Shown here: positions 3,913-57,337 of the stretch, in pieces
How the letters are laid out: each line of letters starts with the position of its first letter
Numbering within the stretch: position 1 is the stretch's first letter
Assembly: GCF_004010195.1 (NCBI RefSeq)
Contig: NC_057751.1
Coordinates: 10,896,617-10,960,616 of the forward strand
DNA length: 64,000 bases
From: Chiloscyllium plagiosum
Lineage: Eukaryota
Direction: 5' to 3'
Position numbers and translations under genes: made by a program
Notes under the pieces: generated by a model
Databases searched by the model: none
The model's input: the letters and a program-made list of their open reading frames with translations, nothing else
What the model was told of the DNA's origin: nothing

Positions 3913-5578
3913 CTTGACAAACACGTCACTATGTATACTGGAAAAAGACAATGTTGTTGAGGAGAATACTGAGATACAGGCTACTAGACTAGACGGGGTT
4001 GAGGTTCACAAGGAGATGGTGTTAGCAAATTCTGCAAAGTGTGAAAATAGATGTCACCTGGGCCGGAAGGGATTTATCCTAGGATTCTCTGGGAAGCCAG
4101 GGAGGAGATTGCAGAGCCTTTGGCTTTGATCTTTGTCATTATTGTCTACAGGAATAGTTCCTGAAGACTGGAGGATAGCAAATGTTGCCCCCTTGTTCAA
4201 GAAAGGGAGCAAGACAGCCCTGGTAATTCTAGAACAGTGAACCTTACTTCAGTTGTGGGTAAATTGTTGGAAAGGGTTATAAGAGATAGGATTTATAATC
4301 CTAAGGAATAAGTTGATTAGGGATAGTTGACATTATTTTATGAAGGCTAAATCGTGCTTCACGAATCTTATTGAGTTCTTTGAGAAGCTGACTAAACAGG
4401 TTGATGAGGATAAAGCAGTTGATGTGATGTATATGGATTTCAATAAAGTGTTTGGTAAGGTTCCCCACAGTAAGCTATTGCACAAAATACAGAGGCATGG
4501 GATCGAGGATGATTTCGCGCTTTGGGTAAGAAATTGGCTAGCTGATAAAAAAAAAACAGAGGGTGGTGGTTGATGTGAAATGTTCCTCCTGGAGTTCAGT
4601 TACAAGTAGTGTACTGCAAGGATTTGTTTAGGGGGCCACTGCTGTTTGTCATTTTTATAAATGACCTGGATGAGGGCGTAGAAGGGTGGGTTAGTAAATT
4701 TGCAGATGACACTAAGGTCGGTAGAGTTGTGCATAGTGCCGAAGGATGTTGTAGGTTACAGAGGGATATAGATAAGCTGCAGAACTGTGTTGAGAGGAGG
4801 CAAATGGAGTTTAGTGCAGAAAAGTGTGATTTGATTCACCTTGAAAGGAGTAACTGGAATGCAGAGTACTGGGTAAATGGTAAGATTCTTGGTAATGTAG
4901 ATGAACAGAGAGTTATTGGTGTCCATGTGTACAGATCCCTGAAAGTTGCTACCCAGGTTAATAGGGTTGTTAAGGAGGCATACAGTGCGCTAGCTTTTAT
5001 TAGCAGAGGGATTTTGGAGCCATGAGGTCATCCTGCAGCTGTACAAAACTTGGTGTGACCGCACTTGGAGTATTGCAAATAGGTCTGGTCAGCACATTAT
5101 AAGAAGGATGTAGAAGCTTTGAAAAGGGTTCAGAGGAGATTTACTGAGGTGTTGCCTGGTAATGGAAGGAAGGTCTTATGAGGAAAGGCTGAGGGACTTG
5201 AGGCTGTTTTCGTTGCAGAGAAGGTTTAGAGGTGACTTAATTGAGACAAAGAAGATAATCAGAGGGTTAATTAGGGTGGACAGTGAGAACCTTTTTCATC
5301 GGATATGATATTTAGCATGAGGGGACGTAGCTTTAAATTGAGGGTGATAGATATAGAACAGGTGTCAGAGGTTGTTTCTTTACTCAGAGTAGTAAAGGGC
5401 GTGAATGGCCTGCCTACAACAGTAGTAGACCCGCCAACATTAAGGGCATTTAAATGATCATTGGATAGACATATGGTTGAAAATGGAATAGTGAAGGTTA
5501 GATGGGCTTCAGATTGGTTCCACAGGTCGGCGCAACATCAAGGGCCAAAGGGCCTGCACTATGCTGTAATGTTCTAAT
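3913..5578 (+). mobile_element. CR1 LINE ORF2 RT region and 3' end, decayed
   Basis: KSCFTNLIEFF, DVMYMDFNKVF and GPLLFVIFINDLD...SKFADDTK, with frameshifts and stops. Confidence 0.92.
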
Positions 5579-7819
5579 TTATACCCACTATATAACTTTC
5601 TGAGATTGATTTTGCCTTTGCCATTTAAGAACTTAATAATTTCTTTGAGCTCTTCTCCTTGATCTTAAGAGGTTGTAGAGCAGTATGCCCAGATGCTCAT
5701 GAATGGCATATTATTTTTAGTGTACTAACATTCAGTGATATCTAAAAGTGGAAGGAGGTTGAGAAGACTTGTCAAGCTGTCTCATTCTGATGTTTCAGTA
5801 TGCTGTTTCATTTGGGATAAAGCTGCTATGGGGAAATTATTCCTTACTTCACAAGCCATCAGATAAATCATGTCCCTTCCCATGAGTATTGCAACTGAGA
5901 GATAATTTCAGCTAAATCAGTCTTCATACTAGAGCTATGCTTTGGCTTATTTTTGAGAAATGACTGCAAGGGCAAGCAAACATAACTTATTCAAATGTTG
6001 TGTAGTTGATGTTGTGCTGAGAATCACTGTTGCATCTGCCATTATCTCATTAGAGTGTCTCAGCAGTAATTCTGTTTTTATCTTCTTATAACTGTATGCA
6101 TGACAACAACGTAGGTTTTGAGTCATCCCACCAATGTTCTCACTACTCAGGCCAGATTTAAACATGTTGTGACAAGGTGATGCCACAACTTTGAAGGTGA
6201 TTAGTTATAGGTGTCATGTAAAAACTGACACAAGGCTGGTGTTAGATATTCTTGAAATTGATCAGTGGGTAAAAAACAGAGAATTAACTTGTTTGGCAAA
6301 CTCAGGCTCCTTGGTGCCTTCAGTGTGTATGTAGCTCATAAAGGAAATGTGAAAGTGTCTACAGTCAATTATTTCCCTTTAGTGCTTAACTTTTAGACTT
6401 TTAATAAACTGCATTACCGCCCTAGAAAACAGTTCGTCCTTTATAATGTGTCCTGAATTATTTCTGACTCCATCCACCAGCTCAGCTGTGAAGAGTAGGT
6501 TCAAGTCAATGAGTTCCAGTTGCCTGTCTCATCATTGAAATTTGTTGTCTGTTCATCCATAGTGCATTCTTATTTTTGGTAGGGCAAAGTAATTTTTGAA
6601 AAGTGCTATCTAGTAACTGTGGAACAGGTTTTGGAATTTATAGAATAAGACACAAGTCCCAGAGAAATATGCATGTGCCATTTATGAGTTTAACCAAAGT
6701 AGAGACACATTACTCTCTGAACCGATCATTACATGAACATTGAGTGAGTTTGTGTGACGGTGCATTGATATCCAAGCTGAATGTAAAATGACTTAGATTC
6801 TTACCAAAGTCCATGGCTAGAATTGGATCTTGTGAATCATCAGGTCTTTGTATTTAATAAGTTTGATTTCAAGCAGACCAGAAATTCCAGAATGTGTGAG
6901 CAGTTTATGAGGCATGGATCTCAGTAAAATGTAAAGCAGTTTTTTTGTATTCCTGGGTTTGGGTCTTGCAGTGGAGTGTGTGAAGCAGTCGGGTAACGGG
7001 CAAACAATACAGTTGTCGATTTGATAAAGTTTAAATTCTTGTCATTTTCATAATGTTATGATATTCAGAAAGCTAATTCTAACTTGCATGGAGTAACTGG
7101 TGTTGTTCGTCAAGGTTTGTAACTTCTTATCCAATAACATTTCATCTCAACAGAGAATTTCACTTCACCAATCGTCTGCATTTTTGCAATGAAGAGTATC
7201 CAAAGGCCAGAAATGTGTGTCCTGTGCCATTTGTCTGAGTTGTTCCTTTTCACCCCCTTGAGGACATGGGCCCAGGTTGGAGATTACTTCTGCCCATTGT
7301 CAGTGTGCTCACTCAGTGGCAGATAACCAATTTATGAGAGCCAAACTGCTCTTTCTGTCTTGCTTTTCTCCCAATTCACCCATGTCCAAACCAAAAAAAA
7401 TGTGCTTGTTGTGTTTCCACCAGTCTTTACAGCTGCTCTGTCCAGTGAATTATCAGAATAGGAAACAAATGGAACCATGTGGCACTCTCAAAATTCAGTG
7501 TGTGCCACTACTCCCAAGACCTGGGAGATGTCATGCACATTGGGCTCATGCTTTTAATCATTGAAGTTTATCAATTATGATTTTTTTTTAAAAAAACAGG
7601 ATTTGTAATATTTCTGCCTTATCTCTTATGTACACATTCCCACTTCAGACCTTTTATATGAAAAAGTCTTTGAATAAGCAAAACTATACTTTGAGTCTTG
7701 TTGAAATGTCCCATCATTATTTTTGCCCCTCACCTTGTGGTGTTTTCATCATTCATTCTGTTTACTGTGTAACATGCTCTGTATGTTTGTTTCCATCGTC
7801 CTTTGCATGCTGCCTCCAG

Positions 7820-7915
7820 CCAAGGGCGCTGAGAGCAGTGCTGTAAGGAACCAGTCAGGTGCTGGGCCTCAGTCCGAGGTGCTCCAGTCTGCTCACCCTC
7901 CGCCTCCTGTACTCT
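7820..7915 (+). CDS. CAMK2B: CAMK2B variable-linker cassette exon A (96 nt, phase 1-1): xKGAESSAVRNQSGAGPQSEVLQSAHPPPPVL
   Basis: ctccag| acceptor after a pyrimidine-rich tract and |gtaagt donor. Length is divisible by 3, it is open in the phase of the hub exon, and it resembles the 22998 exon. Confidence 0.75.
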
Positions 7916-10900
7916 GTAAGTTGTCTGGGCATGCTGTGTTCTGCATTTCACGCGACAGCCTGTGTGTGTTTCCAAATTGTAGAAAGTGGCCATTCATAAA
8001 AAGAAAACATGAAAACGTTTTTATGTAGGTTACTGACATTGAAGGCACAATTTCTTCTCAAAGTTACAGATTCATTTTACCTTTTGAGGAATGTTTTGAA
8101 GTCCAGCTATTAATTTGTCCCAAAATTAAATCTGTGTTCACTTTACTGGCAAATGTTTAATTTCTACCATATTATTTTAACCTGAAATATTTTAATAATC
8201 AAATTGTGAATGATTGAATTAAAATTTTCTTCTGAAAATTAGGTTAACTTTGTAATTCAATTTGAGACAAATGCAAAGAAACCAGTGTGAAGCATCTGAG
8301 ACTTGGCTTCTCCAAGAAAAGTTGTGGATGTAAACGCAATTGACTCGAGTCATTTATTGTAGTCATATACTGACTGGCAGTTAGCCAATCTGGCACGTGA
8401 CTCAGATTTAGCACCTCAAAAGAAGGTGACATCTGTATTCACACAGGATATGAAGTCATCTTAATGATGTATTGAACACTTTCACAAAACATTTAAGACA
8501 TGATGCCTGCTGTACCAGTTAAATGTACAAATTTGAATAACCACCATCCAAATGATTCTAGTACAGTGCCTGTTAATCTCCCAGAGGTGACCTGAGTATA
8601 TTTCACTGCACTTCCACAATTTCACCTCATATCTGAGAGACTTTAGACCTCACGTGTAAATTACATCAGTAACGGTGCACTGATCATGCCAAACATGTGA
8701 TATGATGATAAAGTCAAAAACATGAAATGAGAACACACAGAAACCATCACCATTATCTTTGTGTTGGCATCTCTTATAGTAGTCATTAGAACCTGAGATA
8801 CCAAGTAAGGACACAACCTGAAACGCAGCATATAAAGTTTGCCTACTCAGTTGCCATTCCAGTTTTTGACACGTGCACACAACATCACAAGTATGTTTGG
8901 AAAACGTTTTGAAATCCTTCAGTTCTGGAATTAACTCAAAACTATTTTGAAAATGAAGCCGAGGTTATTTTGATTGAAGTAGTTCAGCAACAAGAATTTG
9001 CACAAATTATTTAGTTTTACAGCTGTAATGATGACATGATTATAGGCTGATCTACAACTCATTTCATTAAAAGAGTTCAAGAGCTTTGCACTAAAACATT
9101 TAAAGAGCTAATACATAACACTACAGCAGAACGTGAACATTCAAAACATTGAAAGCTTCATGAGTCAACCCTTTCAATGTTTTTAAGACTGAGTCTGTAA
9201 TTCATTAGCTTGTTGAATGTTGAATGATTTATTATGAATGGCCTAAGCTCAAATCTGCATGATGTTCAGCTTCATCATCTTTGGCTTGAACCATTAGACT
9301 TGTTTTACAAGGCTAACTGCAGTCATTCTAAAGTACACCATCTCATCTTTGAAGCTGCATGATTTGTGATTTTGCTGTTGTTGATTGAATGTAAAAGGAG
9401 GGTATTGGCACATTGTGTTTGTTTGTAAACACTAAATATTAGACTTTTTGGTTCAGTTCACAGCCAAATTTCTCCCACATGGTGAATTCATTGGCTGATT
9501 GGGAAGATATGTTGTTGCACGGTGTTTTAGAAATTGAAAAGGAAACTATTAGTCAACACAGTGTAGAAGAGCATCTGAACATAGGGGTGATAATATCTCC
9601 AAAACCATCAGTTTTAGTTTGACCGTTCCATCGAAGTTGGTGAAGTGTCTCTTCTGTCTTCCAAATATGGATATCTCAACCTTGATTGCTTTTACTTCTG
9701 CTGGATAATGTTACCATTGCCAGCATGAAAGCTAATGCCCCAGAATATACTTAAGTGACAGCTTTTGATTCAATTTTTTGAACACAATGAATGTCAGCAC
9801 TCTATTTCGAAAAAATCCTCTTCACATTTTCTCCCTTTTCTGCTCCTCATCCCACCTTTCACTGTACCACAGGATCCTGGTTCAGTCATTTTGAAATTCC
9901 AAACTGTTACAAACTGTAAAATGAGGATAGATATATTATTCATTCCAAGCAACCCTGAGAAAGCGGTTGATGGATTGATTTACAGCCAAGTAGCTTGAAA
10001 GGCCCTTTCCTAAGAGGGCTGAAAGTGTGGACCACATATTGTGGCACTGCAGTCAGAACAGACAGAGGTAACAGATCTCCCCTCAAGGACATTCATAAAC
10101 CACTTTTGTTTCGAGCAATGATCTGGCATTTTCCGCCTTTTGTTTAGACTAAAAATTCATATTGTTTGGTTTATTGAAGTCATTTGCAATTTTCCCGTGC
10201 TGGGATTGACTTTAGAGCCTCAGAATTGATAACCATCACTGGACTATAGTACTCTCAGATGGGTGCATTTTTAGCAAGGCCTTCTTATTTCGCTGTGATT
10301 TGAGGCTTTCTGATCCATCATAGTTCAAACCCCAGAATACAATGACATACATCCACCCATACCCCCCCACCCTACATTGATTCCCAGTACAGGTCGATTT
10401 TGACTTGTGAAGAAGTGAGGTAGTCTCTTTTTTTTTTGTTCCTTGAACAAGCATGAGCATCACTGGCAATGCCAACATTTGTTGCTCCGTCTTCTTAAAC
10501 CACTGCAGTATGTGCAGGTACTCCACAAATGCTTTTAATGAAGGGAGTACGATAGTGACTGCGGAAAGCATCAGCTGCTTCACCTTATTACTCTTATCCA
10601 ACGCCAAGTAACTGAAAGACAAGGAGAATACAACAGGCTTCATGGCAGGATACCTGATACTTCACGTGGCTGGGAAGGTACTGGGAGCATGAAGGGAGTG
10701 AACGTTTGTTCAGTTCTTCCATTTTAATTTGGATTTTTAAGAAATTCTGTATGTGGCTCATTAATAGACATGGCAAAATGGCACCAAAATGTGGGTTCAT
10801 GCAGCTTTAAATTCATTGACATGCAACATTCTGACAAGTCACTGCATTTGTCTCAATCACCTCCAAAGTTTCCTATATTTCTAATGTCTTTAAAAGGTTT

Positions 10901-11606
10901 CTAGTGTATGCCAGCTTTAATGGCTTTGCTGGGTGGGGAGGGGGTTGGTAGAGAGGGAACATGATCCTGAACCTGAGTTATAGGAAACTATATGGAATTG
11001 TAGTAAAACAATCGTCAAAAGATTTGTTTGCATTTTTATTATTACTGTACAAATGTTAAAATGCCTGTTCCAATGAATACCACTATTGTGTTAGCTGAAA
11101 TGTAACGGATAGCTGACTGGGACAGCTTGGTACTATTCCTTCAGCTTGTGAGCTCCAAGTGCATTGCATTCTTGCAGTGTGCTAGAGTGGGCACCTGCCT
11201 GTGTTAGGGAAAAGTACGACATAAGTTCTAATCAGCTGTCCTACTTACACAGTGAAGATGTTGAGAAGGCTGACTGGTTTCCTTGAATTAAAAGATGCAA
11301 TTCCCAACTTAGGAATGAAAGAAAACCTGAAACCTCTTTATGTTCTTGAAGCTGCAGTGTTTGATGCAGTATGAAACATTAAAAGATAGTTGTCATCAAC
11401 TCAAAACATTTCCTGCAATGGGCACAAAGACAATTATGCAAAACATCCTTCATCCCTTTTATGAGATGTCCCTTTCTGTATCTGACACAGTATCTCATTC
11501 CGATGATGGTCTTCACAGTTAATTCAGATAATGGAAAAAGTCGATTTGCAGTGTCTTGTCTGAAGCTGTAGTCATTAACAGAATTTCGGCTGTTCTTTGT
11601 AATTTC

Positions 11607-11945
11607 TAAGGTGTAGGTTTGCTCGCTGAGCTGTAGGTTTGATATCCAGACGTTTCATTACCTGGCTAGGTAACATCATCAGTGGCGACCTCCAAGTGAA
11701 GCGAAGCTGGTGTCTCCTGCTTTCTATTTATATGTTTGTCCTGGATGGGGTTCCTTGGGTTTGTGGTGATGTCATTTCCTGTTTGTTTTCTGAGGGGTTG
11801 ATAGATGGTATCTAGATCTGTGTTTGTTTATGGCATTGTGGTTGGAGTGCCAGGCCTCTAGGAATTCTCTGGCATGTTTTTGCTTCGCCTGTCCCAAGAT
11901 AGATGTGTTGTCACAGTCGAAATGGTGATTTTTTTCATCTGTGTG
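11607..11945 (-). mobile_element. Penelope-like element 3' fragment (family C): GIY-YIG endonuclease C-terminus and terminal repeat with hammerhead core
   Basis: Minus-strand HHFDCDNTSILGQAKQKHAREFLEAWHSNHNAINKH. Hammerhead core CTGATGA-T-GTTACCT-AGCC-AGGTAAT-GAAAC-GTC at 11682-11649. Confidence 0.85.
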
Positions 11946-12531
11946 AAACAACTATTCACAACTCTAAGCCCCCCTTTTCTTGACTACTTTTTACCTGCGA
12001 CCAACTCTATAACAATGTACTGTTCCAGTAAACACTTGTTAAACCTACATCAACTTAATTTCAAAACCACACAGTGACTGTTGTCTTCTAGCTGAAGATC
12101 TCCCCAGATCATGGTCTTGCTTTTTACTGTAAATATGTTTCAGATGAAAAGGTAGATTTGAGAGAGAGTGTTTCCGAATTTCTTGGATCTGTGTTGATGG
12201 TAGTTGTTTGATCCAATTTTCAAAATGCCAGCCTTTTTTTATATCCTGCATCAGATTGTCTCATTGGTTCGATGTTGGCAAAACATTAAACTCAAACTTG
12301 ATTGGGCTTTAGTATTCTGGGGCATAATATAAATTGATTGGTTAAATTCGAATTGTTGTCAAAACAGCAACGAGTTCAGGTATCCAATTCATAGCCAAAT
12401 GTTACGTATTTTCAATTTTCCAGTACTCTGAGATTGGTTTCTTGTTATATCACAGGTGCTTGTAAGCTCTCAGTGCAGAACATCATTCACTCTCTCTTAA
12501 AGGTAGAGTACATGACTTTAGGTTCATAACA
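11946..12531. mobile_element. Partial LTR-like repeat, same family as 36053-36550/40311-40545 and related to 55074-55771
   Basis: Shared blocks such as gattgtctcattggttc, agccaaatgttac.tattttcaattttccag and cttaaaggta.agtaca. Ends in ...cataaca. Confidence 0.65.
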
Positions 12532-12599
12532 AAATGAATATTTACAGACTGATAAAATGTTTTGAGAGTTTCTGACTGAACCACTCTATCAGGCAGACA

Positions 12600-14283
12600 C
12601 TACACTGCCCTTTTGAGCGACATTTCTCCTCAACGGTTCTCTTTGCCATCTCCTTATCTTAAACTTATGTCCTTCTTAAAAGACATTAGACACATACACG
12701 AAGAGGAAAGTTTGAGAAGGATATGGTCCAAATGCAGGCAAATGGGACTAGTTAGGTTTGAGAAACTTGATTAACATGGACAAGTTGGGCTGAATTCAAC
12801 CTTGGAAGGTGACAGGTAATGAGGGATGGCTAACATACAAGGGATTACACTATAACAAGTAAGACCCTGAAAGTTCTGTACATACGTGGGATCTTGGTGT
12901 CCATGTCCACAAATCCCTGGAGGGGACCTTCTGTTAATAGTCAAAGTACCTTGCTCGCCCCTCAATCTCAATCACCTCTTTCATTCTCCTTTCAACCTTT
13001 CTGCTCCAAGGAAAACAACTTGAGCCTTTCCAACCTTTCCTCATAATTCAGATCTACAGGAGCTTCCTGGTAAATCTCCTCTGCACCATTTCTTGTCCGA
13101 TCAGGTCCTTCTGATAATGTGATGGCCAGAATTGTACATGACACTCCAGTGGTGGCCTAACCAGTTTATGTAGTCCCAGCATAACCGCCTTGTTTTTCGA
13201 TTCTAATAAAGGCAAGTAGCCTAGATACTTTCTTAACCACCTTGCTCCCTCCAGAGATTTGTGGGACATGCACACCAAGATCCCACTGATGTCCAGAACT
13301 TTCCAGGGTCTGACTTGTTATAGTGTCGTCCCTTGTATATTAGCCATCCCTCATTACCTCTCACCTTCTAAGGTTAAATTCAGTCCAACTCGTCCATGCT
13401 GACCAAGTTTCTCAAATCTAACTAGTCCCACTTGCTTGCATTTGGCCTATGTCCCTCCCAAACTTTCCTGTACATGCATCTGTCCAAATGTTTTTTAAAA
13501 GTTGTAACTGTACCTGCATCTACCACTCCTCGCAGTTCATTCCACATTCCTCTGTGTAAAAACATTGTATCTCGGGTCCTTTATAATTCTCTCTCCTCGC
13601 ACCTTAAAAATTACGCCCTCGAGTTTTGATCTCCCCTACCAAGGGAAAAGACCTTGGCTTCACCTTATCTATGCCCCTTTTATAAAGCTCTGCAAGATCA
13701 ACCCTCAACCTCCAAGCTCGAGTGGAAGAAGTTTCAGCCTTCCTAGCCTCTCCATATAATTCAAACCCAACAATCCTGGCAACATCCTGGTAAATCTCTT
13801 CTGCATCCTCTTCAATTTATTAATATCCTTCCTATAGCAGGGTGGCCAGAACTGTACGCAGTACTCCAAAAGTGATCTAACCAACATCCTGTACAACCTC
13901 AATATGACCTCCCAAATCCTATACCCAATGGTCTGAAGGCAAGTGAGCTAAATGCCTTCTTATCCACTCTGTCTATCCTTCATGAAACTTTCAAAAAACT
14001 GTGAACCACTGCTCAAGGTCCTATTATTAACTGTATAAGTCCTGTCCTTGTTCATTTTACCAAAATGCAATACCTTACATTTATCCAAATTAACTGTATG
14101 TGTCACTCCTCCGCCCACTGGCCCAATTGGTCAAGATCTCTTTGTAATATTAGATAACCTTCTTCACTGTCAACAATACCACCAATTTTAATGTCAGCTG
14201 CAAACTTACTAATCGTGCCTCCTAAATTCTCATCAAAATTGTTTATAATTAACTGGTTTTGAAATTCTCTCCAATCTTTGATC
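12600..14283 (-). mobile_element. Composite of CR1 LINE fragments with an internal inverted duplication
   Basis: Minus-strand RT and C-terminal motifs ISKFAADIKIGG, LEYCVQFW and LECHVQFW. 12673-12925 is an inverted copy of 13246-13501. Confidence 0.85.
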
Positions 14284-16462
14284 AAGCACTGATCTTCACA
14301 GAATCATATACAAATTTTCTTGCAAATTTTACATCAACATAAAGATTATTTTTTGAGTGTGCTGACACTGTATAGACTGCAGTGGTTCATAAAGGCAGCT
14401 CAACTTCACCTTTCTAAGGGCAACTAGAGTTGGGTAATATATATTGCCCCAAACAGCAACATCCACGTCCCATGAATAATTTTTAAAAAAATGTTAACAT
14501 TGAGCAATACATTTGAGCAACAAATTTGATGTTACCATCTGACTCCCACAAATCTTGAGATGCTAATTTTATTTGCCATTCACTTGCAATGCACAAATCT
14601 GGATCTACCCACAAGTCAGTGATGAACTGTTTAACATGACAACGTGATCACTAGCTTCTCCACTTTGTTTCCATTTAGTATATTGCAACCACAATCTATA
14701 TTTATTTCAAATAAAATGTGTTCAGTTAAAGGCACCAGTAATAATCCTTCATTTTGCTTTCAGAGAAAACATTTTGTATGAACATCAGAAATATATGTTA
14801 CGTAACCTTGCTCAGGCAAACAAAACCCTATGATTCCTGATGCATTGTTTGGTGGCTCTGCATTCTGATTGGCTGGCCAACCCAGTTTTGCATTGAACTG
14901 ACTATCTTTCTAACAACTTGTCAATGAGCCCTTTTCTATTTTGCTCTTGTTATATTACTTTTCTAAGATGTTTCAAATACATGAAGTGTAGCTGTTCCTT
15001 CCCATCCTTGGACAATCATCTATTTTCATAATTTCTGCAAAAGAAAGCCATCAACATGTGTGCTGAGATGCAGCAAGGGTGTTACAGATCATTCAGACTT
15101 CTATTTTTTTATCATGTTTTCACTTGGAGCTCTTAAAGATGATGGGAGATGTTCCTATTTTGTTTCTATCATTTGGTTGACCAGGAATCTCTCCTGCTCT
15201 TTGAGCTTGTTACTTCAATTGTGTTGGAAAGCGAAATAACCCCACAAAAGCCAGTATCCAATCACCAAGTTACCCTGATTGACAAAAGACCAATCCTTCA
15301 CTGCAGTAATGTCTCATAAAGATTCAGGCACCCAGAGTCAGTATCTGGGACACTCCCTTTTTTATGTCAGCCAGGGCTCCCGGATTGGACTGGATTAATA
15401 GTCCCAATCGGGGAACTCATATTCTACGAGATTCATCTGGCTGACTTTGTTACAGTCACTATTGAAGGATTTACAGGTTAATATCAAATTGTTTATTTGT
15501 ATTTTGAATCCATCTTTCTTGTCCTGGGTAGGACTCTTAACCAATCTACTCCATTAGATGCTATGCAATGCACACCATAAGATGAATGCACTTCTGAGAT
15601 GTAGCACACACTTTCTTCCAAAATATAAGGGTGTCAATGCAGCAAGCTAATTTTTACATACCTAACGCTTGTTCAAGGGAGAGATTAGTGAGCAGAAAAA
15701 ATAATTTTCTTCAGACTAAAACTGTCTTAGATTGTTGAATATGAAAAGACACAACCACCCTTGAAGATTTTTCATGGTATAAATCTTAAGAGTTCAAATT
15801 CGAAGCATTTTTGTATGGGTTGCAGGCAGCATGAGTCAGTGATGATGTCACTCATTGCGTAAAAAAGATGTTGTGGCAATGTAGGGATCCTAAGATTAAA
15901 AACCAAGTGCTTACCTCCCTGGTGCATAGCAATCAGGCCACAGCAAATGTTGATTTTCTGCTGCTTATCAAAGCATGAATGCATTGTTCTCCTGATTTCC
16001 TGGACCAGACAGTGCCTTCAGCATGGTATGAAACATTGTGATCTGCACTTAATCTGCATCTAAACTCTAAGTGCAACCCAGCCATGAATTTTTAACCTGT
16101 GTTCAGAAAAGATCTGATGCAAGTTCTCACTGCGAGATGGCAATTTGATCAACTTTTCTGTCTCTTTTTCTCTTCAGCAACTCTCTGCCTGTCTGTCAGT
16201 TATTTTGTTTCTTTGTTCAACTTAGGGGAGAACAAAACATTGTAATATATTGGTAAATATCATGCAATCGCAAATACAGTTTTTAAAACTTGACAGTTTT
16301 AGTAAAACAACACAGAAAATTAATGTTATATGTTTCATTGAACTCTTGACAATTCACATTCATAAGGATGTATGAAACACATTCCATTTTACTTGAATTT
16401 TCCATAAAGATTGTGCTTTTTACAGCTTTTCATCCCAGCTTCTCTCCATCTCCCACTATTAG

Positions 16463-16588
16463 CTGCAAAGTTCACAGATGTTCTTAACAGTGTACGGAGA
16501 GGGTCAGGACCCTTTCCTGACCATGAGGGGCTCCTGACTCCTGCTGCACAGCCTCCACTGCCACCTCTCACTCCCTCTTCTATGCCCA
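16463..16588 (+). CDS. CAMK2B: CAMK2B betaM-type proline-rich cassette exon B (126 nt, phase 1-1): xAKFTDVLNSVRRGSGPFPDHEGLLTPAAQPPLPPLTPSSMP
   Basis: tattag| acceptor and |gtaagt donor. DVLNSVRRGSG...EG matches the mammalian betaM repeat DILNSVRRGSG.PEAEGP. Confidence 0.92.
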
Positions 16589-17716
16589 GTAAGTAAGTCT
16601 GTGATGAAAGACCACTGAGCATGTGGCGTGTGCACTGATAGCATGCAAGTGTTGGGCACCCATATTCAGCTTTGTGCAAATAATTGAGCCAAAAGACTTA
16701 ATGACCCATGAAGACTACAATTTTAAGTTGTTGCATGGCCACTGGGGCAAAAGCTGTTTTTCTCATTGGGCAATAAATGTTGGAATGGAAATGCCATGGC
16801 AATGTGGTGTAGTTCAATTAAAACATACAGTTTGGGACTGATTAATGCCATATCAGTGATGTGAAATAGCCCTGCTCTCACATTACTGTGATCATTTTGG
16901 AACCAAACCACAAACAACAGTTTGCATTTCTGTCAGCCTGCCCTGCTATGCCAAAGTTTAAACAGCACTATTGCCATTGAAAGGTACAATCAGATATACG
17001 GTTAACAAGGTCCATTTTGAGAAAACAGAACACTTTCTCAGTGACTCTTGACTTTTCTGTCATAGTAACATGTTCTACCTTCCTTAAATCCACAATGCTA
17101 TCAATTAATTTTAACAAACATTTGGAGACTTAGACTTGTGGAATAATGACACCCCTGTGCTGATGAAAATTCAGTTACAACTTGTTCTGAATTATGTGGA
17201 GTAATTATACTTTGTTAGACACTCGCAATTGTTGGTCTTGTTAACACTTTGTTAGCACTTGCACACTTTGGAGGTGAGGTCAAACACAGCAGTCGACTTA
17301 CCTATTGTGGCTGTGCTCAATAATTTAAATTCTCAATCGAGCAGCACCTTGATCTGAAATGCTTAGATGTGCGTTCAGGTCCCTCTCTAAGGTCTTGAAA
17401 GTGGACCTTCTAAGGTCCAGACTGATGAAAACACAAGTTTAATGGATAATTTACTTATGCAATCAGTTTGTTCTGTGAATCTCTGCGTCGTTCAAAGAGA
17501 ACTCTGATTTAAAAACTTTTGCCATGCAGTATGGAACCATCTAAAGTTAACATGTTTAGAAACTGAAAATAGACACAGTTAAATCTTCTGTAAGTTTTGC
17601 AGCTTGCTCAGCAATGCAACTTGTGCAGCAAAGAATAGCACGCCATGGTTTCACTTCTGCCAGCTATTTTATAACCTTGTATATTATTACATCATATTTT
17701 CACCTTCCATCCTCAG

Positions 17717-17833
17717 CTGCGAAATTCACAGATGTTTTAAAGTGTGTGCCACGACAGTCCGCACCTTTTGCTGAATCTGAGGGTGGCCAATCTGTTCAGG
17801 TACCACCTCTCACTCCCTACATCTCTATCCCTT
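17717..17833 (+). CDS. CAMK2B: CAMK2B betaM-type cassette exon C (117 nt, phase 1-1): xAKFTDVLKCVPRQSAPFAESEGGQSVQVPPLTPYISIP
   Basis: cctcag| acceptor and |gtaagt donor. Clear paralogue of exon B (AAKFTDVL, PF...EG, PPLTP), with synonymous differences. Confidence 0.88.
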
Positions 17834-18662
17834 GTAAGTAGCAAGCAATGCTGCCTGACTGAGATTCAGCCTTCTCTATAAGGCTGAACGAATGCAATGC
17901 ACTTTCAGCATGTGGAAGGTGTGCATCTTTCTTGCAAGTTTAAAATGCAGAAAAGCTGGCAGTGATCTAAAATTTATGATGGATATTATTTAAGGACATT
18001 CGTCTACAATTAAGCTTTGCTTGTAACTTGCTTGGCAGTTATTTCCAGGCAACAGTCAGTGTACAGTCCTAAATGATGATGCAAGCAATTTGAACACTCA
18101 GTTCAACTTGAGCTTTTAAACAAAGCATGAGCCCAGTGCCAAGATAGAAACAGAAGGATATAATCGTACAGTAAATTGACCAGGTACAAAACACTGCTTC
18201 TTGAAAAATGCTTGACATGTTTCCAGTTTTGAAAGGTGGTTAAGTTAGGAATACAGTCAGTTCTGCTATAATGTAGTTCTGGTAGTTCCATTCTCGTGCA
18301 ACCCCGTGTTATAAGAAAATCATGTAACAGCAGCACCATTTAAACTAATAAGGTTGGAATTGCATTGTAACCAATTTGCATTAACGAAACACGCAGTATA
18401 GCAGAACAAGCTGTATTTGAGTATAATAACTGTTCTTCCCTACCAGTAACAGCTGGTCGGTAATAAATCATGGTTCTCTTGCTCCTGAGTTAAATTTTCT
18501 GTCAAATTTTAATGATCTGATTCCAGAACATTTCTGACAAATGAAAATGGCTTCATGCACAAACATTTATATTTCCATTCTCAACAAGGTGAATCTGAGC
18601 TTCCAGTTGCTGCTCCAAACTGCATTGTTAATACGATTGTAATGAATTTTTAAAAAAAAATT

Positions 18663-19510
18663 ATTGATTCATTTTGTGGGACATGGACATTGCTGGCTGG
18701 CCAGCATTTATTGCCCATCCATAATTGCCCCTGAGAAGGTGGTGGTGTGCTGCCTCCTTGAACTGCTGCAGTCCACCTGCTACAGGTTGACCCACACTGC
18801 CATTAGGATTTTGACCCAGCAACAGTTAAGGGATGGCGATATATTTCCAAGTCAGGATGTTGAGTGACTTGGAGGGGAACTTGAAGGTGGTGATGTTCCC
18901 AAATATCTGTTGGCCTTGTCCTTCTAGATGGAAGTGATTGTGGTTTGAAAAATGCTGTGTGAGGATTTTTGGTGAATTTCTGTAATGCACCTTGTAGATA
19001 GTACACACTGCTGCTGCTGAACATCGGTGGTGGAGAAGTGAGAGGATGCTTGTGGATCTAGTCCCAATCAAGCAGGCTGCTTTGCCCTGGGTGGTGTCAG
19101 GCATTTTGAGTATTGTTGGGGCTGCACCTATCCAGGCAAGGGGGAAGTATTCCCTCACATTTCTGACTTGTGCCTTGTAGATGGTGGACAGGCTTTGATG
19201 AGTCAGGAGGTGAGTTAGTCACTACCATATTTCTAGCTTCTGACCTGCTCTTGTAGCCACTGTGTTTATGTGGTGAGTCCAGTTGAGTTTCTGGTCAATG
19301 ATAGCCCTCCCAGGAATGTTGATAGTCAGGTATTCAGTGAACGTAACACCATTAAATGCCATGGGGTGGTGGTTAGATTGTCTCTTATTCGTGATGGTCA
19401 AAGCCTGGCTTTGTGTGGCACAAATATTACTTGCCACTTGTAAGCCCAATCCTGGATATTGTCCAGATCTTGTTACTTTTGAACATGGACTGCTTCAATT
19501 TCTGAGGAGT
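18663..19510 (-). mobile_element. L2/CR1-group LINE 3' fragment (second family)
   Basis: IDQKLNWTHHINTVATRAGQKL and EYFPLAWIGAAPT...QGKAACLI. Related copies at 34730-35365, ~53590-53880 and 58540-59250. Confidence 0.8.
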
Positions 19511-20018
19511 CGTGCCTCACTGCACCATGAGTTGGTGTGTTTTTGATGAGTGCATCATGAGTTTCTGCTGAAATTCAGATATATAGAAGTATGTGCATGA
19601 GAGGGAAATCACTCATTTTAAATGAGTCTGTCTTCTTACAGGCAGCGTCACCAGTTCATATAAACTGAAATATTTGTGAGAAACTGATGAACTTAAATCA
19701 TAAGATCATTTTCTTCTTATTTTTGAGCTAAATTTGACATAACTAAATGCTTGAACATTTTGTTTCTACTTGTGAAGTCATTCTGGCTCAGAAGGCAGAG
19801 ACTAATTTTCTGCCAGACCTCTACCTCTGTAGGCCAGCCACAAAAAATGCAGGGGAATCAACCTAGGACAGACAGCCCAAGCTTATTCCTCTCTCATCAT
19901 CTATTCTGCTCCTATGTACACGAACACAAGTGACCGAACAAACATTGCAGTTGAATTTCAACCTGCTGTCTGTATCTCTATCAGTTTTCATTCTTCCAAA
20001 TGGGGTTTGCTTAAGTTG

Positions 20019-20143
20019 AGAAAGTGAGGTCTGCAGATGCTGGAGATCAGAGCTGAAAATGTGTTGCTGGAAAAGCGCAGCAGGTCAGGCAGCATCCAGG
20101 GAACAGGAGAATCGACGTTTCGGGCATAAGCCCTTCTTCAGGA
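20019..20143 (-). mobile_element. PLE-derived short element (family A) with intact minimal hammerhead core
   Basis: Minus strand reads CTGAAGA-A-GGGC-TTAT-GCCC-GAAAC-GTC (20141-20114). Near-identical copies at 30967, 41826, 51138 and 59903. Confidence 0.8.
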
Positions 20144-21081
20144 AGGGCCTTGCTTAAGTTAAGCAGACTTGAGACATTTGTTTCATTTTGAGACTTCCCA
20201 TCTTAGTATGAGCTGAGAATGTCAAAGGAGAAAATGTTGTGACTGGAGACTTACCTGAAAGTTGTTGTGCAGATTTGCCAATAAGGGAAGCAGCTCATTT
20301 GCTCCTGACCTGCTCTGAGGCAAACTCTTTGAGTGTATTTTTAATAAAAGTGAGTCATATTGTTTGAATATCCATCTCATAATCCTGCAAGTGTAAATTT
20401 GTGATATTAGGATCAATATCAAGAATATGCCATTTTATTTGATATTGCTATCCAAGGTCATAATCAACATTCATAAAAGAGCTTATCCACTCCCTCTTCA
20501 TATGGAAGTAATCAAGGGCCTAACTCTTCTCTGTTCATGCAAAAAGGATGGTGGGACATTTGATCCTCAAGATTGATTGTTCCCTCGTTACTGGGAGTCA
20601 GATTTTTCTTTTCCCCACTCAGCTGTTTGTTTGTTTCATCAGCTCTTCCATTGACCACACAGTCCACTGAAACACAATTACTGGACTTAAACAAGTCACA
20701 TGATAGCAAGCTGACCAGCTCCCATACTTCACATTCAACCAGACTTCAGAGCTTCACTGAATAGTAACGTTTTCTATGTAGTACACCTTTTAAAACTTAT
20801 ACATCCTGATCTGTAAGAAGGTTTGGATCCTGCATGCAAGTTTTGTTTGTTGACTTTTTTTGTCTCCTTCTAAAATATATAATTTAGCAATGCTTCAGTA
20901 GTAACTTATCCAGATCCTCACATTTGATTTACTTTACACCCTTACCGTTGGACTGAATCAAATTCATAAAATAGGGCTGTTGAATCTAATACTTCCCTAA
21001 CCTTTTGAAGATAGAGGAAAGACTTGACGTCTTGAAGTTTGTAATTCTGAATAAGGCTCTTGTCGGCTGTGTATATTTTAG

Positions 21082-21280
21082 AGTTAAAAATCACACCACA
21101 CCACATTATAGGCCAACAGGTTCATTTCGAAGCACTAGCCTTTGGTTCATCACAACCACCTCATGAAGGAGCAGCACTCTGAAAGCTAGTGCTTTCAAAT
21201 AAACCTGTTGGACTATAATCTGGTATTGTGTGATTTTTAACTTTGTACACCCCAGTCCAACACCAGCATCTCCAAATCAT
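21082..21280. mobile_element. PLE family B palindromic insertion (inverted terminal repeats plus tail)
   Basis: agttaaaaatcacac...aacagg...agcactagc is mirrored by gctagtgct...cctgttgg...gtgtgatttttaact. Confidence 0.8.
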
Positions 21281-22997
21281 ATTTTAAACGTTAGGATACC
21301 CAACATGTTGTTAACTAGATATGTGACCAAGCTTGCATCCTCGTGAACATTATGAATTTAACAACTTATTCCAGCTAGCACTATTTCTGAATGCCTATGA
21401 TCATGGTGTTTATTATGTAATTTCTATTGAAGTGAGAATTCCAACTAATTCCCAAGGAACATCCATAATCTGTGATTTAAAAAAAATAAAAATAAATATT
21501 CAATTCAAGAAAAAACAAGTTCAAGCATATATGATTTTAAAAGCCGTGCGAGTTTTTGCTCAGTGAGGATTTTAACATGGCATGAATAACCCACAATTTC
21601 TGCACTTGGTTCCCACTGTCTAACTCAGATGTGCAGCATGTTTGAATGCATTTAATCGCTGCAACCATTTCCAGTTGCCTTCTGTGTCAATAAAACCTCA
21701 GTGTCCTCTAAATTCTTCAGTCAGCATCATCAGTGTAACTCCTGACCTCTGCTTTGAGGTCTTTCACTTTGCTGTCATTGGTTGATCTATTTCACAAAAG
21801 AAATGCCCATTTTTCAGCATATATATTAACTGACCCAGAAGGAACACTTGGTATGACATAATTCTCTGAATTAGACTGTAATCTATGCACATAGGCATGA
21901 GAGCAGTATTTACTGGTCACTTTATAGACTATTCCTGAAAGCCATATTCTCATGTTTTACTCCAGTGATTGCAACAATAATATGAATTTTTTTGTGTAAA
22001 ATAACAGGTTGTTTGGGGATCTTGATTGTGCACACCACTGTTAAGAACTAGAGCTGTAGAAATGGGTTCCTGTCCACAATTCTGCACCCATTGAATAGCC
22101 TGTTGTGGAGGAAACCAGGATACAGCAATATGACAAGCTCTTTGCTTTGTCTGGGAACCTCTGACAAGCTTGAACAGAGCTCCCCACAGAGTGAGAGACA
22201 TTTGTCATCAGTTCATCTTTGCACAGGTTGGAGAACAGTGCTTCTCATCAAAGTTGCAAAGAAGAGGGGAGATATATTGATTGCATTCCAAAGTCCAGAA
22301 GATCTAATGTCAATTGAATTGGATTACATCAGCTTTGTAAAGCATTCTTCATTGGCTCTTCGTATTACAACATACAAGTTAAGTTTTGTTCATGGAAACT
22401 GAAATTCCAATGGCATCATATAATGCAAACGATGCAATACTTTTAAGTTCAAAGTTATCTGCAGTATAGAACTGGTTAACTATCTTTGTGAAGACAAAGC
22501 CGTCAAATTTAATCCTTTTTGTGAATATAATCATATAATCCACTGCATGGTTCGAAGGTACAACATTTTAGTATCCCTCAATCAGCGCCACACAGATTTT
22601 GATCATTATTCCATTGTCATTTGTGAAAGGCAACAGTGTGCAAATCAGCTGCTTAGTTTCCTTCAAATGCAAAACTTCGACTTCAAATTACTGCACTGCC
22701 TCTAAGGTATTTTAAGCAGTCATGAGGTCATGAAAGGCATGAAAGAAATGCAAGTCTGTTTTTCTATCTATTACTGCAGCATCAGGAGACTGTGAAATGC
22801 AAAAACAAAGTTCTCTGTTTTGAAAACCAAATTCTGTTCCATTTAAAATGGAAATTATTTCTCTCTCGAGAATATGGCTTTAATGCAATATTTTTGGAAA
22901 CGTATTCATTCCCTCAATATTGATCCATTTTTGCTTTTACTCTTGGATATTCATTGTGTCTCTTTCATATGTGATATCATTTTTTCTACAAACTCAG

Positions 22998-23081
22998 TTG
23001 CTAAAGGTATGGATCGTATGTGTGTTAAGAATCAGTCCAATGATTACAAGAGACCCCTCAGCTCACCACCTCCAACTCAAT
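22998..23081 (+). CDS. CAMK2B: CAMK2B variable-linker cassette exon D (84 nt, phase 1-1): xAKGMDRMCVKNQSNDYKRPLSSPPPTQ
   Basis: actcag| acceptor and |gtaagt donor; symmetric and stop-free. Shares the AKG-x5-V[RK]NQS...PPP pattern with exon A. Confidence 0.75.
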
Positions 23082-23209
23082 GTAAGTGTTACAGATATTG
23101 GTACCCAACGTTATCTGAAGAATGGCTTTGCTTTACCATTCAAGTCATAATACTCATATAATTTAAAGGATGTGGTAATTTGACACATAAAATTTAGGCT
23201 TGGCAAACT

Positions 23210-26788: not shown

Positions 26789-27886
26789 CCAAATGGAATA
26801 CGAGGAGAACTAGCCATTTGGATACAGAACTGGCTCAGAGGTAGAAGACAGAGATGGAGGGTTGTTTTTCAGACTGGAGGCCTGTGACCAGTGGAATGTC
26901 ACAAGGATTGGTGTTTGATCCACTACCTCTCATTTATACAAATGATTTGGATGTGAGCATTACAGATATAGTTAATAAGTTTGCAGATGACACCAAAATT
27001 GGAAGTATAGCAGACAGCAAAGAAGGTTATCTCAGATTACAATCTTACAGGGATCTTGATCAGATAGGCCAATAGGCTGAAAATTAGCAGATGGTGTTTA
27101 ACTTAGATAAATGAGAGGTGCTGAAAATCTTAGCAGGACTTATGTGCTTAATGGTAAAGTCCTAGGGAGTGTTGCTGAGACCATGGAGTGCAGGTCCATA
27201 GCTCCTTGAAAGTGGAGTCACAGGTAGATAGGATAGTGAAGAAGGCGTTTGGAATGCTTTCCTTTATTGGTCAGAGCATTGAGTACAGGAGTTGGGAGGT
27301 CATGTTGCAGCTGTACAGGACATTGGTTGGGCCACTGCTGGAATATTGTGTGCAGTTCGGGTCTCTTTCCTATCAGAAAGATGGTGTGAAACTTGAAAGC
27401 GTTCACAGAAGATTTACAAGCATGTTGCCAGGATTGGAGGATTTGAGCTATAGGGAGAGGTTGAATAGACTGGGGCTGTTTTGCCTGGAGTGTCAGAGGC
27501 TGAGGGGTGACCTTATAGAGGTTTGTAAAATCATGAGGGGCATGGATAGGATAAATATACAAAGTCTTTTCCCTGGGGTGGGGGAGTCCAGAACTAGAGG
27601 GCATAGGTTTAGGGTGAGGGGGGAAAGATACAAAAAAGACCTACAGGGCAACGTTTTCACACGGAGGGTGGTACGTGTATAGAATGAGCTGACAGAGAAA
27701 GTGGTGGAGGCTCGTACAATTGCAACATTTAAAAGGCACCTGGATGGGTATATGAATAGGAAGGGTTTGGAGGGATATGGACCGGGTGCTGGCAGGTGGG
27801 ACTAGATTGGGTTGGGATATCTAGTCGGCATGGACAAGTTGGACCTAAGGGTCTGTTTCTGCACTGTACATCTCTACGACTCTATA
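26789..27886 (+). mobile_element. 5'-truncated CR1 LINE
   Basis: VTSGMSQG, NKFADDTKIG, LEYCVQF and RGHRFRVRG, ending in gactctat. Confidence 0.93.
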
Positions 27887-28367
27887 AATGCTTCCTCTCT
27901 TCTGTTAAAAAAAAAATCAGGTGGAAAAGAGGACCTGCACAGATTCTTAGTTGTTATCCCAATTGCAACTTTTCCCTTGCTGCCAGTAGTGACCATGAGT
28001 TTTGTTTCCGATTGCTATTTGAGATACACATATGCTAGCAAAAAATGTTAAGAGACTGGAATTTAGAATACTTCCAGATCTCTAACTGTTGTGCTATCGT
28101 CAAACAAATCTATGTCACTGTCCATATAATGTCATCAATTTTCTTATGGTCTCATATGGCATCACATGCCATATGCCTTCCAAATATATAAAATCAAAAT
28201 CGTTCAGATTCACTGGAGGAGAATCACTCAGGATATAATAATGTGTTGAGTTAGGTTTCTGCTTGAGGACTCATTACACATTTTGAGTCCCATGAAATGT
28301 TCAATCTCACTTACTACAATAGCAGCAATGTTACTACAAATTTACAATCCTCACCACCAACATTAGT

Positions 28368-33829: not shown

Positions 33830-34500
33830 TTCACGGACTCTAGGAACGTTGCTTGAAGTATTGTCTCTTGTGTGTTATATGTCTTCTCTTTTGCAAACAA
33901 ACAACTCGAAGGACATCACATTTCGAAGAGTCGCAAGTCTTAAGTAATTACCGTACTTTCACGAAAACAACCTGCAGGGTATATCTTAAAACGTATTCCA
34001 AAGGCAATGTGGCTTATATTCGTGGGCGGGTTATATGTGCGACTTTTTTTGCAGATGGCTGGCCAACTTCGGTCTTCCTACAGGTAAGAGGTAAGTTATT
34101 GCAAAAGTGGAGATGGCTAACATTTTAAACTGTTTGTGTGAACAAGGGAATTAGCTGTCTTCGCGTGATTATGAATGGGTTTAAATCTTTATGTACATGG
34201 ATGAGAGGGTAGTTTTATCAGGTATTGTACAGGGCCATTTTGACGTGGGATCGATTCATTGTGCGGAATTACACGTTTTATTTTGTTCTCAGAAGCACAT
34301 TATAATAATGCTAATTAGGTTACAGCCCAGGTTTTTTTTCGTGAAATTACGGTAACAATCCAAAATACAAGTTTTAAGTTAATTGTAAAAGTTAGTATCA
34401 CCAGCTATTCTCGGCACCAATTTTATTTCGCTACGTAAGAAAGTGAATTACTGTAAATGGGAATTGATACCATTAAGCAGGGAATCAAACTGCGAATTTT
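33830..34500. promoter_or_regulatory. AT-rich, CpG-undepleted intragenic patch (possible internal promoter or enhancer)
   Basis: About two dozen CpGs by eye in ~670 bp of non-repetitive DNA. GGGCGG at 34024 and TGACGT at 34241. Confidence 0.45.
34055..34090 (+). CDS. Candidate 36-nt phase 1-1 exon (xGWPTSVFLQVR)
   Basis: tttttttgcag| acceptor and GAG|GTAAGT donor, with a competing CAG|GTAAGA donor at 34084. No homology support. Confidence 0.3.
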
Positions 34501-34567: not shown

Positions 34568-34643
34568 CTCGCAAGCAAGAAATCATCAAGTTAACTGAGC
34601 AGCTGATCGAAGCCATCAACAACGGAGACTTTGAAGCTTATGC
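34568..34643 (+). CDS. CAMK2B: CaMKII beta association (hub) domain exon 1: [26 protein letters not shown]
   Basis: Recognisable CaMKII sequence with AG/GT boundaries; 76 nt. Confidence 0.97.
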
Positions 34644-35740: not shown

Positions 35741-36016
<276 letters not shown>

Positions 36017-41273: not shown

Positions 41274-41506
41274 TGTTATCTAAAAACAGCAAACCCATCC
41301 ACACAACTATTTTGAATCCTCACGTGCATCTAATTGGAGAAGATGCTGCCTGCATAGCATACATTCGCCTCACCCAGTATATAGACATTCAGGGTAGGCC
41401 ACGGACAACCCAGTCAGAGGAGACACGGGTCTGGCACCGTCGGGACAGCAAATGGCAAAATGTTCACTTCCACTGCTCGGGTTCTCCAGCAGCACCACTC
41501 CAGTGA
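41274..41506 (+). CDS. CAMK2B: CaMKII beta last coding exon: [19 protein letters not shown]...[18 protein letters not shown]
   Basis: atgcag| acceptor, stop TGA at 41504-41506, then AG|GTATGA donor. [10 protein letters not shown] is beta-type. Confidence 0.97.
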
Positions 41507-56700: not shown

Positions 56701-57053
56701 CGACTGTACTTCAACATTCTATGTTTTGCAGAGTTACTTTAACACAGCAACCTACTTGAGAATCTATGCATGATGATATTAATAGTTATTATTAATATCA
56801 ATTTAATAATGAACAAGGTTATACTTAAGTGTTATTTAATCTGCTTCAAATGTTCTGTTTTCAATATGTTCTACAATCTGCAGTTAATAAACAATCATTA
56901 ACTTTTCACACTGTTGGTTCTGGTCAGACTTGCCTGAGAGTGGTGCTGTTGAGCACAATGTAGTCCTATTTGTAAGAACTGGCATTAGGTTTCTGGTACT
57001 TAAGGACTGCCAGTGCAGTTAGAACGATAAAAAATATCTTGCTCTTGATTCAG

Positions 57054-57337
57054 GCAATCTGGATGGTGAAGAAGGAGCTGCAGACCGTACAATTGAGGAT
57101 GTTTTCATCCGCAAGTTTATTTATGGAACCTTTCACGGCTGTCTCGCCAATGACGTGGTTGTGAAGAGGAGAGCAAACATGATTGTCGTCTGCGCCATCT
57201 TCATTCAGAAATTGCCACCTCAAAAGTTCTATTTCCTGATCGGCTACACAGAGACTCTCCTCTCAAACTTGTATAAATGTCCTGTCAAAATGGAAGTGCA
57301 GACAGTGGATAAAAAGATTGTATATAAATACATATAA
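57054..57337 (+). CDS. MRPS24: MRPS24 exon 4: SNLDGEEGAADRTIEDVFIRKFIYGTFHGCL...KCPVKMEVQTVDKKIVYKYI*
   Basis: attcag| acceptor. Spliced CDS is 30+69+112+284=495 nt, giving 164 aa plus TAA; homologous to mitochondrial ribosomal protein S24. Confidence 0.97.

Follow-up and report, generated by a model that had tools for sequence, protein, structure and literature searches.

An array of five in-frame linker exons in CAMK2B of Chiloscyllium plagiosum, with betaM-type repeats and a second exon family

We analyzed a stretch of 64,000 nucleotides (nt) from Chiloscyllium plagiosum (NCBI RefSeq assembly GCF_004010195.1, contig NC_057751.1, positions 10,896,617 to 10,960,616 of the forward strand), called the window below, which carries part of CAMK2B, the gene for CaMKII-beta. 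The region that codes for the linker between kinase and hub contains five in-frame cassette exons, A to E. On sequence comparison, B and C are betaM-type RRGS repeats, and A and D form a second family. The array is likely spliced as two modules, with A on its own and B-C-D as a block. The lineage-specific part of the array appears to be D and E, and A is an old exon that mammals appear to lack. The exons are listed by window position; exon numbers follow bioRxiv 10.1101/721589.

7820..7915, + strand: exon A, 96 nt, phase 1-1; linker exon of the A/D type, common to ray-finned fishes and a lizard
16463..16588, + strand: exon B, 126 nt; betaM-type RRGS proline-rich repeat, with a transcript contig of exact boundaries
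17717..17833, + strand: exon C, 117 nt; the other betaM-type repeat, in which carpet sharks have PRQS in place of RRGS, with a contig of exact boundaries
22998..23081, + strand: exon D, 84 nt; second exon of the A/D type, found in sharks and rays only
34055..34090, + strand: exon E, 36 nt, phase 1-1; fifth cassette
34568..34643, + strand: first hub exon (exon 22)
35773..35867, + strand: second hub exon
41274..41506, + strand: last hub exon, coding part including the stop codon

The initial annotation described A to D as four phase 1-1 cassette exons in that order, and this description is confirmed by splice signals, frame, transcript contigs with exact boundaries for B and C, and RefSeq models. 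Each of the four is preceded by AG and followed by GTAAGT, has a length that is a multiple of three and is free of stops in phase 1. Together they measure 423 nt, which gives the 141 added residues that had been predicted as a maximum. A plain scan of the plus strand for splice signals returned 13 candidates, of which A to D are four, and E is also among them. All 15 ordered junction codons that A to E and the first hub exon can form are sense codons. Exon E lies outside the interval from 7820 to 23081 to which the array had been assigned, and the array has five cassettes. An inner GT donor of E at +29 would shift the frame and lead to a stop in the next exon, and a second AG at 16439 (+ strand), 24 nt 5' of exon B, would add eight in-frame residues that are absent from the models fetched. 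By blastn there is no additional copy of A to E in the window, the flanks of the exons are not homologous to one another, and Rfam gave 0 matches within the window. The linker segment is expected to be disordered, and the ESM Atlas returned no usable match for it.

The assignment of the gene to CAMK2B was correct. A search with exon B matched 65 proteins among 211 candidates, all of them CaMKII models of sharks and rays, with automatic names that vary between beta, gamma and delta. The exons are already annotated in public RefSeq gene models: in the C. plagiosum model P0001, A, D and the three hub exons match at 100%, and B and C match over the whole exon length. Beta-type exons 13 and 18, both located upstream of the window, can be read from models that do not differ from the window in A-D and the hub. 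For a longer isoform, the best PDB match is the beta chain of 8t6k, a beta holoenzyme, and this match includes exons 13 and 18. Hub identity is 93-94% to beta and 90-95% to gamma types, and by itself does not separate the two. In the last exon the sequence WQNVHFH agrees with human beta; gamma has WLNVHYH there.

Transcript support for the array is thin but direct. Four coded runs were aligned to positions 7700-23200, and the alignments are dominated by repeats; one run, X5, is guessed to be RNA. In X5, one contig corresponds exactly to 16463-16588 (exon B) and another exactly to 17717-17833 (exon C), both with no differences, and their flanks do not run on into the intron. The exon B contig has 71 extra letters. 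When these are placed in A, the expected bin depths are 1.84, 0.67, 3.38 and 2.04, compared with observed depths of 1.84, 0.68, 3.38 and 2.04, whereas placing them in exon C does not reproduce the observed depths. As the depths fit only with the 71 letters in A, this arithmetic, rather than a listed joint, implies an A-B junction in the contig. In the bin that holds D the depth of X5 is 4.51, and it is 0 in the preceding bin. Runs X1 and X2 gave chiefly intronic contigs, and the raw-read run X11, at about 2/100 of the run, had zero depth in all four exon bins and is no evidence either way. Among the rows listed there is no joint of A or D.

The grouping into two families rests on profiles. Pairwise homology was scored against shuffles, and as proline runs inflate such z scores, we built profiles from bony vertebrates only. 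In the shuffles, B and C reach z 10-15 at both the protein and the DNA level (blastn E 4e-6) and A and D reach z 3.4-5, with A-B at 3.3-4, C-D at 0.8-3.1 and B-D at 2.1 at most. A hidden Markov model (HMM) of bony repeats placed B (E 6e-13) and C (E 2e-6) first among 2216 segments, and a full-length HMM of 12 bony first exons, the exon ahead of the repeats, gave its best score among 2216 segments to A (E 0.0009). A profile of the 12-residue start was made from nine ungapped bony-vertebrate first exons, with eel and two cyprinids excluded for gaps. Among 3560 AG-anchored starts, A scored 24.8 and D 24.1 on this A core, with the next best at 15.7, and on the repeat core B scored 42.4 and C 26.8, with the next best at 16.7. 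Against a null of linker composition, A, D and all nine D variants have p <= 0.0001 on the A core, and for seven of the nine variants the D of other elasmobranchs scores 28.7-31.4, above the D of the window. On the repeat core A scored -4.9 and D 0.0 (rank p 0.37 and 0.12), so that by this test neither is a betaM repeat.

The proposed pairing of A with D and of B with C is therefore upheld, as these exons rank first and second on the respective profiles, and D is likely a duplicate of A. The further claim that all four exons are homologous holds for B-C and for A-D and is weak between the families. If one residue is deleted, the A core gives p 0.013 for B and 0.015 for C, 20 of 32 bony repeats, which are non-independent, have p < 0.05 on it, and both families have basic-x-x-acidic-x3/4-V-basic-x-x-S in common. 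A common origin of all four exons is plausible but weakly supported. Alignment gave no relationship of E to A-D.

In sharks and rays the array is well conserved. The elasmobranch set comprised 287 models from 18 species, retrieved by similarity to the full array. All four exons occur in one model in 14 species. Identity to the window in the 13 other species is 24-30/31 for A, 27-41/41 for B, 24-38/38 for C and 18-27/27 for D, and over nine shark species A has 28-30 of 31 residues identical. In E, all 11 internal residues are identical in 29 models, which belong to five species of Mobula (M. birostris), Heptranchias, Pristis, Amblyraja and Leucoraja; E is in none of the Chiloscyllium models fetched and has no match among the non-elasmobranch proteins fetched. 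The four motifs first given for the exons do read so in the window, but VPRQS in C and VKNQS in D are carpet-shark states, and D reads VKSQS in other sharks and rays. Skate A reads VRKLS. In Stegostoma (zebra shark, P0058 and others) D begins three residues later, which suggests a shifted acceptor. Linker length goes up to 245 residues in one C. plagiosum model and to 275 in a skate.

The initial annotation regarded the build of this linker as special to the lineage, and this view is not supported. A profile search of 1.84 billion representatives was evaluated for the best 150 of 197 matches. Among the matches listed, a wall-lizard model (Podarcis, P0123) has a non-repeat first exon followed by four repeats, goby and plaice fragments carry a first exon resembling this one, and the models from frog and mammals show repeats only. 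The best 120 of 633 matches of a second search, with models of 194-618 residues, a range outside which most long isoforms fall, extended the set to gar, reedfish, bichir, mormyrids and eel and to a large number of teleost camk2b1 models; the majority have three exons. The extra first exon occurs in 69 of the 74 bony models that include exon 18 (out of 77 with a repeat), counts that are query-biased, and the five models that do not have it are from three mammals and a frog, plus one cyprinid isoform. Shark A aligns without gaps, and at the same position, with the first exons of reedfish (z 8.4) and gar (z 9.1), and scores z 2.7 with that of perch. The bony-vertebrate exon is thus orthologous to A; the order A-B-C is common to reedfish, gar and teleosts, and the lizard has A plus four repeats. 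These four repeats are near-identical, read KRGS or KKGS and represent an independent expansion.

On the mammalian side the initial annotation was right that the A/D subtype is not known from mammals: A, D and E are missing from the human exon list of bioRxiv 10.1101/721589, and none of the three mammalian models fetched has the A/D type. It had also held that orthologues already described in fish would remove the novelty. A is indeed present in fish models, but these are automated annotations rather than described exons. The D core was found after the repeats in none of the 70 bony models with a readable tail, most of which are listed at 618 residues or fewer, and D or E in none of the 77 bony models, of which 17 are longer than 618 residues or have no kinase domain.

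These distributions would fit an ancestral jawed-vertebrate layout A-B-C, from which A would have been lost in mammals and to which D would have been added as a copy of A in the shark-ray line. Mammals likely lost part of an older modular linker. Alternatively, D may be as old as A and may have been lost in bony vertebrates, a history that we take seriously without favoring it and that would be compatible with the mechanism proposed below. On the bony A core, the D of most sharks and rays scores higher than shark A (about 31 versus 25), and no chimaera or lamprey sequence was retrieved as an outgroup. The missing D core in the 70 bony tails fits either history, and gain and loss are equally simple, with one event each. 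A wider proposal would be that an undescribed A-type family is ancestral in jawed vertebrates, bears a conserved phospho-docking motif that is particular to it, undergoes splicing independent of that of the muscle repeats, was lost in mammals and was duplicated in sharks and rays, where an invariant 12-residue exon was added. This is tentative, and we would not expect all of it to hold; if true, non-mammalian vertebrates, including zebrafish relatives, have a regulatory input into CaMKII-beta that is invisible to mammalian studies.

The combinations of exons in the elasmobranch models point to two modules. All four exons are present in 158 of the 287 models (14 of them with an extra segment), A alone or with E in 74, and B-C-D with or without E in 28. 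Less common are ABC (10 models), CD (8), ACD (3), BC (2), AB (1) and BDE (1), and two models have none of the exons. B, C or D alone, AC, AD and ABD do not occur among the 287. In the models named X1 of Carcharodon, Pristis and Rhinoraja, A is present and B-D are absent. Positions 16171-16272 (+ strand) of the window match a segment of 25 residues that 14 models of Mobula hypostoma have between A and B. In the window the frame has a stop, and this stretch may be either a conserved intron or a lost exon. The downstream flanks of the exons contain GCATG, which we take to be an Rbfox site:

16619..16737, + strand: three GCATG elements downstream of B, candidate Rbfox-type inclusion sites
7929, + strand: further GCATG, after A
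17908, + strand: further GCATG, after C; D has none

Within 150 nt downstream of A-D there are five such elements, compared with a null mean of 0.7 for four exons (p 0.0005, post hoc, in a test of five motifs and two window sizes). TGCATG and ACTAAY are not enriched near A-D, and TGTGTG is enriched downstream of A only (p 0.018).

What these exons may do can be judged by analogy with mammals. There, betaM, which is the predominant beta form in skeletal muscle, is defined by all three repeats, and pancreatic beta3 by two (PMC5882894). The betaM form is described as the isoform of the neuromuscular junction, and Mbnl1-mutant muscle skips the three muscle-specific betaM exons together (PMC11106974), and in human hippocampus the repeats were not detected (bioRxiv 10.1101/721589). 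The initial annotation assumed that linker length tunes activation. For calcium sensitivity this does not hold, as the half-maximal effective concentration (EC50) of beta stays at 14-31 nM across linkers of 0-217 residues (bioRxiv 10.1101/721589), and brain beta variants differ little in EC50 and somewhat in substrates (PMC9772828); it does hold in that long beta linkers favor inhibitory autophosphorylation (PMC7141811).

We propose that tandem exon duplication gave rise to in-frame alternative linker exons from two families, of which B-C-D would act as a betaM-like block, probably in muscle, and A would be used separately. The inserts would lengthen the tether between kinase and hub and add phosphorylation and docking sites in the form of serines and proline motifs, leaving calcium sensitivity unchanged. 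R/K-x-x-S is a kinase consensus. The conserved serines, which stand in R/K-x-x-S in A and D and in R-R-x-S in B and C, may be used as phosphosites; by analogy, a long linker may bias the enzyme towards inhibitory autophosphorylation. We consider it rather probable, from the likeness to betaM, that a muscle-type B-C-D block together with a separate A extends the tether and adds such serine sites and proline motifs.

The main rival to this proposal is that the inserts are pure spacers, which we consider unlikely. The near identity of A among nine shark species and the invariance of E in five species argue against it, as do the N-terminal cores that are recognizable from sharks to bony vertebrates. 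Splicing signals within the exons, on the other hand, could account for part of this conservation. A different reading, put forward by the initial annotation, is that A to D are freely combinable cassettes that give up to 16 linkers. All junctions are indeed in frame and 10 of the 16 combinations are present in the models, but six are absent, including each of B, C and D alone, and three forms, ABCD, A and BCD, counted together with their variants that carry E or the extra segment, account for 260 of the 287 models, in a sample that is biased; free combination is therefore improbable. A reading of A and D as pseudo-exons that arose by chance, or as artefacts of annotation, would agree with the lack of a joint row for either exon among the transcript rows listed, but conservation in 14 species already refutes it, and the bony-fish orthologues and the inferred A-B contig add to this, so that we give it practically no weight.

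Several observations nevertheless weigh against the proposal of two modules from two conserved families. The combination counts come from automated models, retrieved with a bias to more exons, and not from full-length transcripts, and each of the 18 models fetched for C. plagiosum is ABCD. The muscle specificity of B-C-D would follow by analogy with betaM, and MBNL-type YGCY is not enriched around A-D, although the mouse exons depend on MBNL1. D is not among the best 12 of 2216 segments with the full-length bony-A HMM, which means that the detectable likeness of A and D is confined to the first 12 residues, and this 12-residue core was picked after the alignments had been viewed. End to end, shark A and the lizard first exon are weakly alike (z 1.8, p 0.056). 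The K-x-Q-S site is absent in all five cyprinid variants, in eel and in the lizard, teleost A is not proline-rich, and C of carpet sharks has lost RRGS, reading VPRQS instead of the VRRGS of other sharks and rays.

The mammalian inserts of betaM and beta3 (exons 19-21 in bioRxiv 10.1101/721589; v7a-c in PMC5882894) resemble shark B and C in several respects. They belong to the same gene, lie at the same place between exon 18 and the hub, are of phase 1-1 and similar length, and have a basic-x-x-D-x4-RRGS core and a proline-rich tail. The shark gene differs from mammalian betaM in having two repeats rather than three, with A before them, D after them and E further downstream. In gar (P0361), reedfish (P0364), teleost camk2b1 and Podarcis P0123, an A-type first exon is followed by RRGS repeats; in gar and mormyrids the repeats read GSGP and then GSAP, like B and C of most sharks. 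These ray-finned fish and lizard models differ from the shark in that D and E were not found among the 77 bony models and in the four repeats of the lizard. CaMKII-gamma has an exon 19 at the same position and in the same phase, which has been termed homologous to beta exons 19-21 (bioRxiv 10.1101/721589). The identification of A with this exon is not supported, as bird gamma exon 19 scores z 1.3 against the A type, 0 against D and 1.2 against the repeats. A second gamma-type exon scored z 3.0 against the repeats, in one of nine tests and with a proline-rich sequence. In the gamma-type proteins P0134, P0135 and P0142, exon 18 or 19 is followed by an extra exon of about 42 residues, which the human gamma exon list of bioRxiv 10.1101/721589 does not contain. 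A precedent for the loss of a CAMK2B linker exon in mammals is v3N, which carries a nuclear localization signal and has been kept in fishes and sharks (PMC5882894). Unlike A, it lies upstream of exon 18 and has a known function.

A literature search found no description of A, D or E, with key fish papers outside its coverage, and six peptide motifs matched no paper in a full-text search. The zebrafish variants in the PMC10766190 supplement are without A, D and E, and the available parts of PMC7916148 and PMC12324419 hold nothing on them. In PMC8327911 the CAMK2B linker was analyzed in 10 and in about 100 species, and its figures or supplement may include the fish exon. The array does not change our understanding of how CaMKII works, and the exons were already in public gene models. 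The catalogue of CaMKII linkers in use is mammalian, with nine exons and three repeats that are described as peculiar to beta, and the array does show that it does not cover other vertebrates completely. The segment after exon 18 appears to have been rebuilt repeatedly: ray-finned fishes have A-B-C, sharks and rays have A-B-C-D-E, the lizard has A plus four repeats, and mammals have three repeats. Such natural modules, alike in length and unlike in sequence, offer a test of linker length versus linker sequence, and the cyprinid orthologue of A makes the question testable in a fish model.

Downstream of CAMK2B and on the same strand, the window contains an exon of another gene:

57023-57334, + strand: last coding exon of mitochondrial ribosomal protein S24 (MRPS24; Pfam PF14955, E 7e-46)

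Human MRPS24 is presumably also located near CAMK2B. The introns contain retroelement fragments at 37229-38807 (- strand), with similar stretches near 4000-5500 and 26800-27900, which we take to be broken reverse-transcriptase-like retroelements, and short high-copy elements lie near 20018-20144 and 21150-21280.

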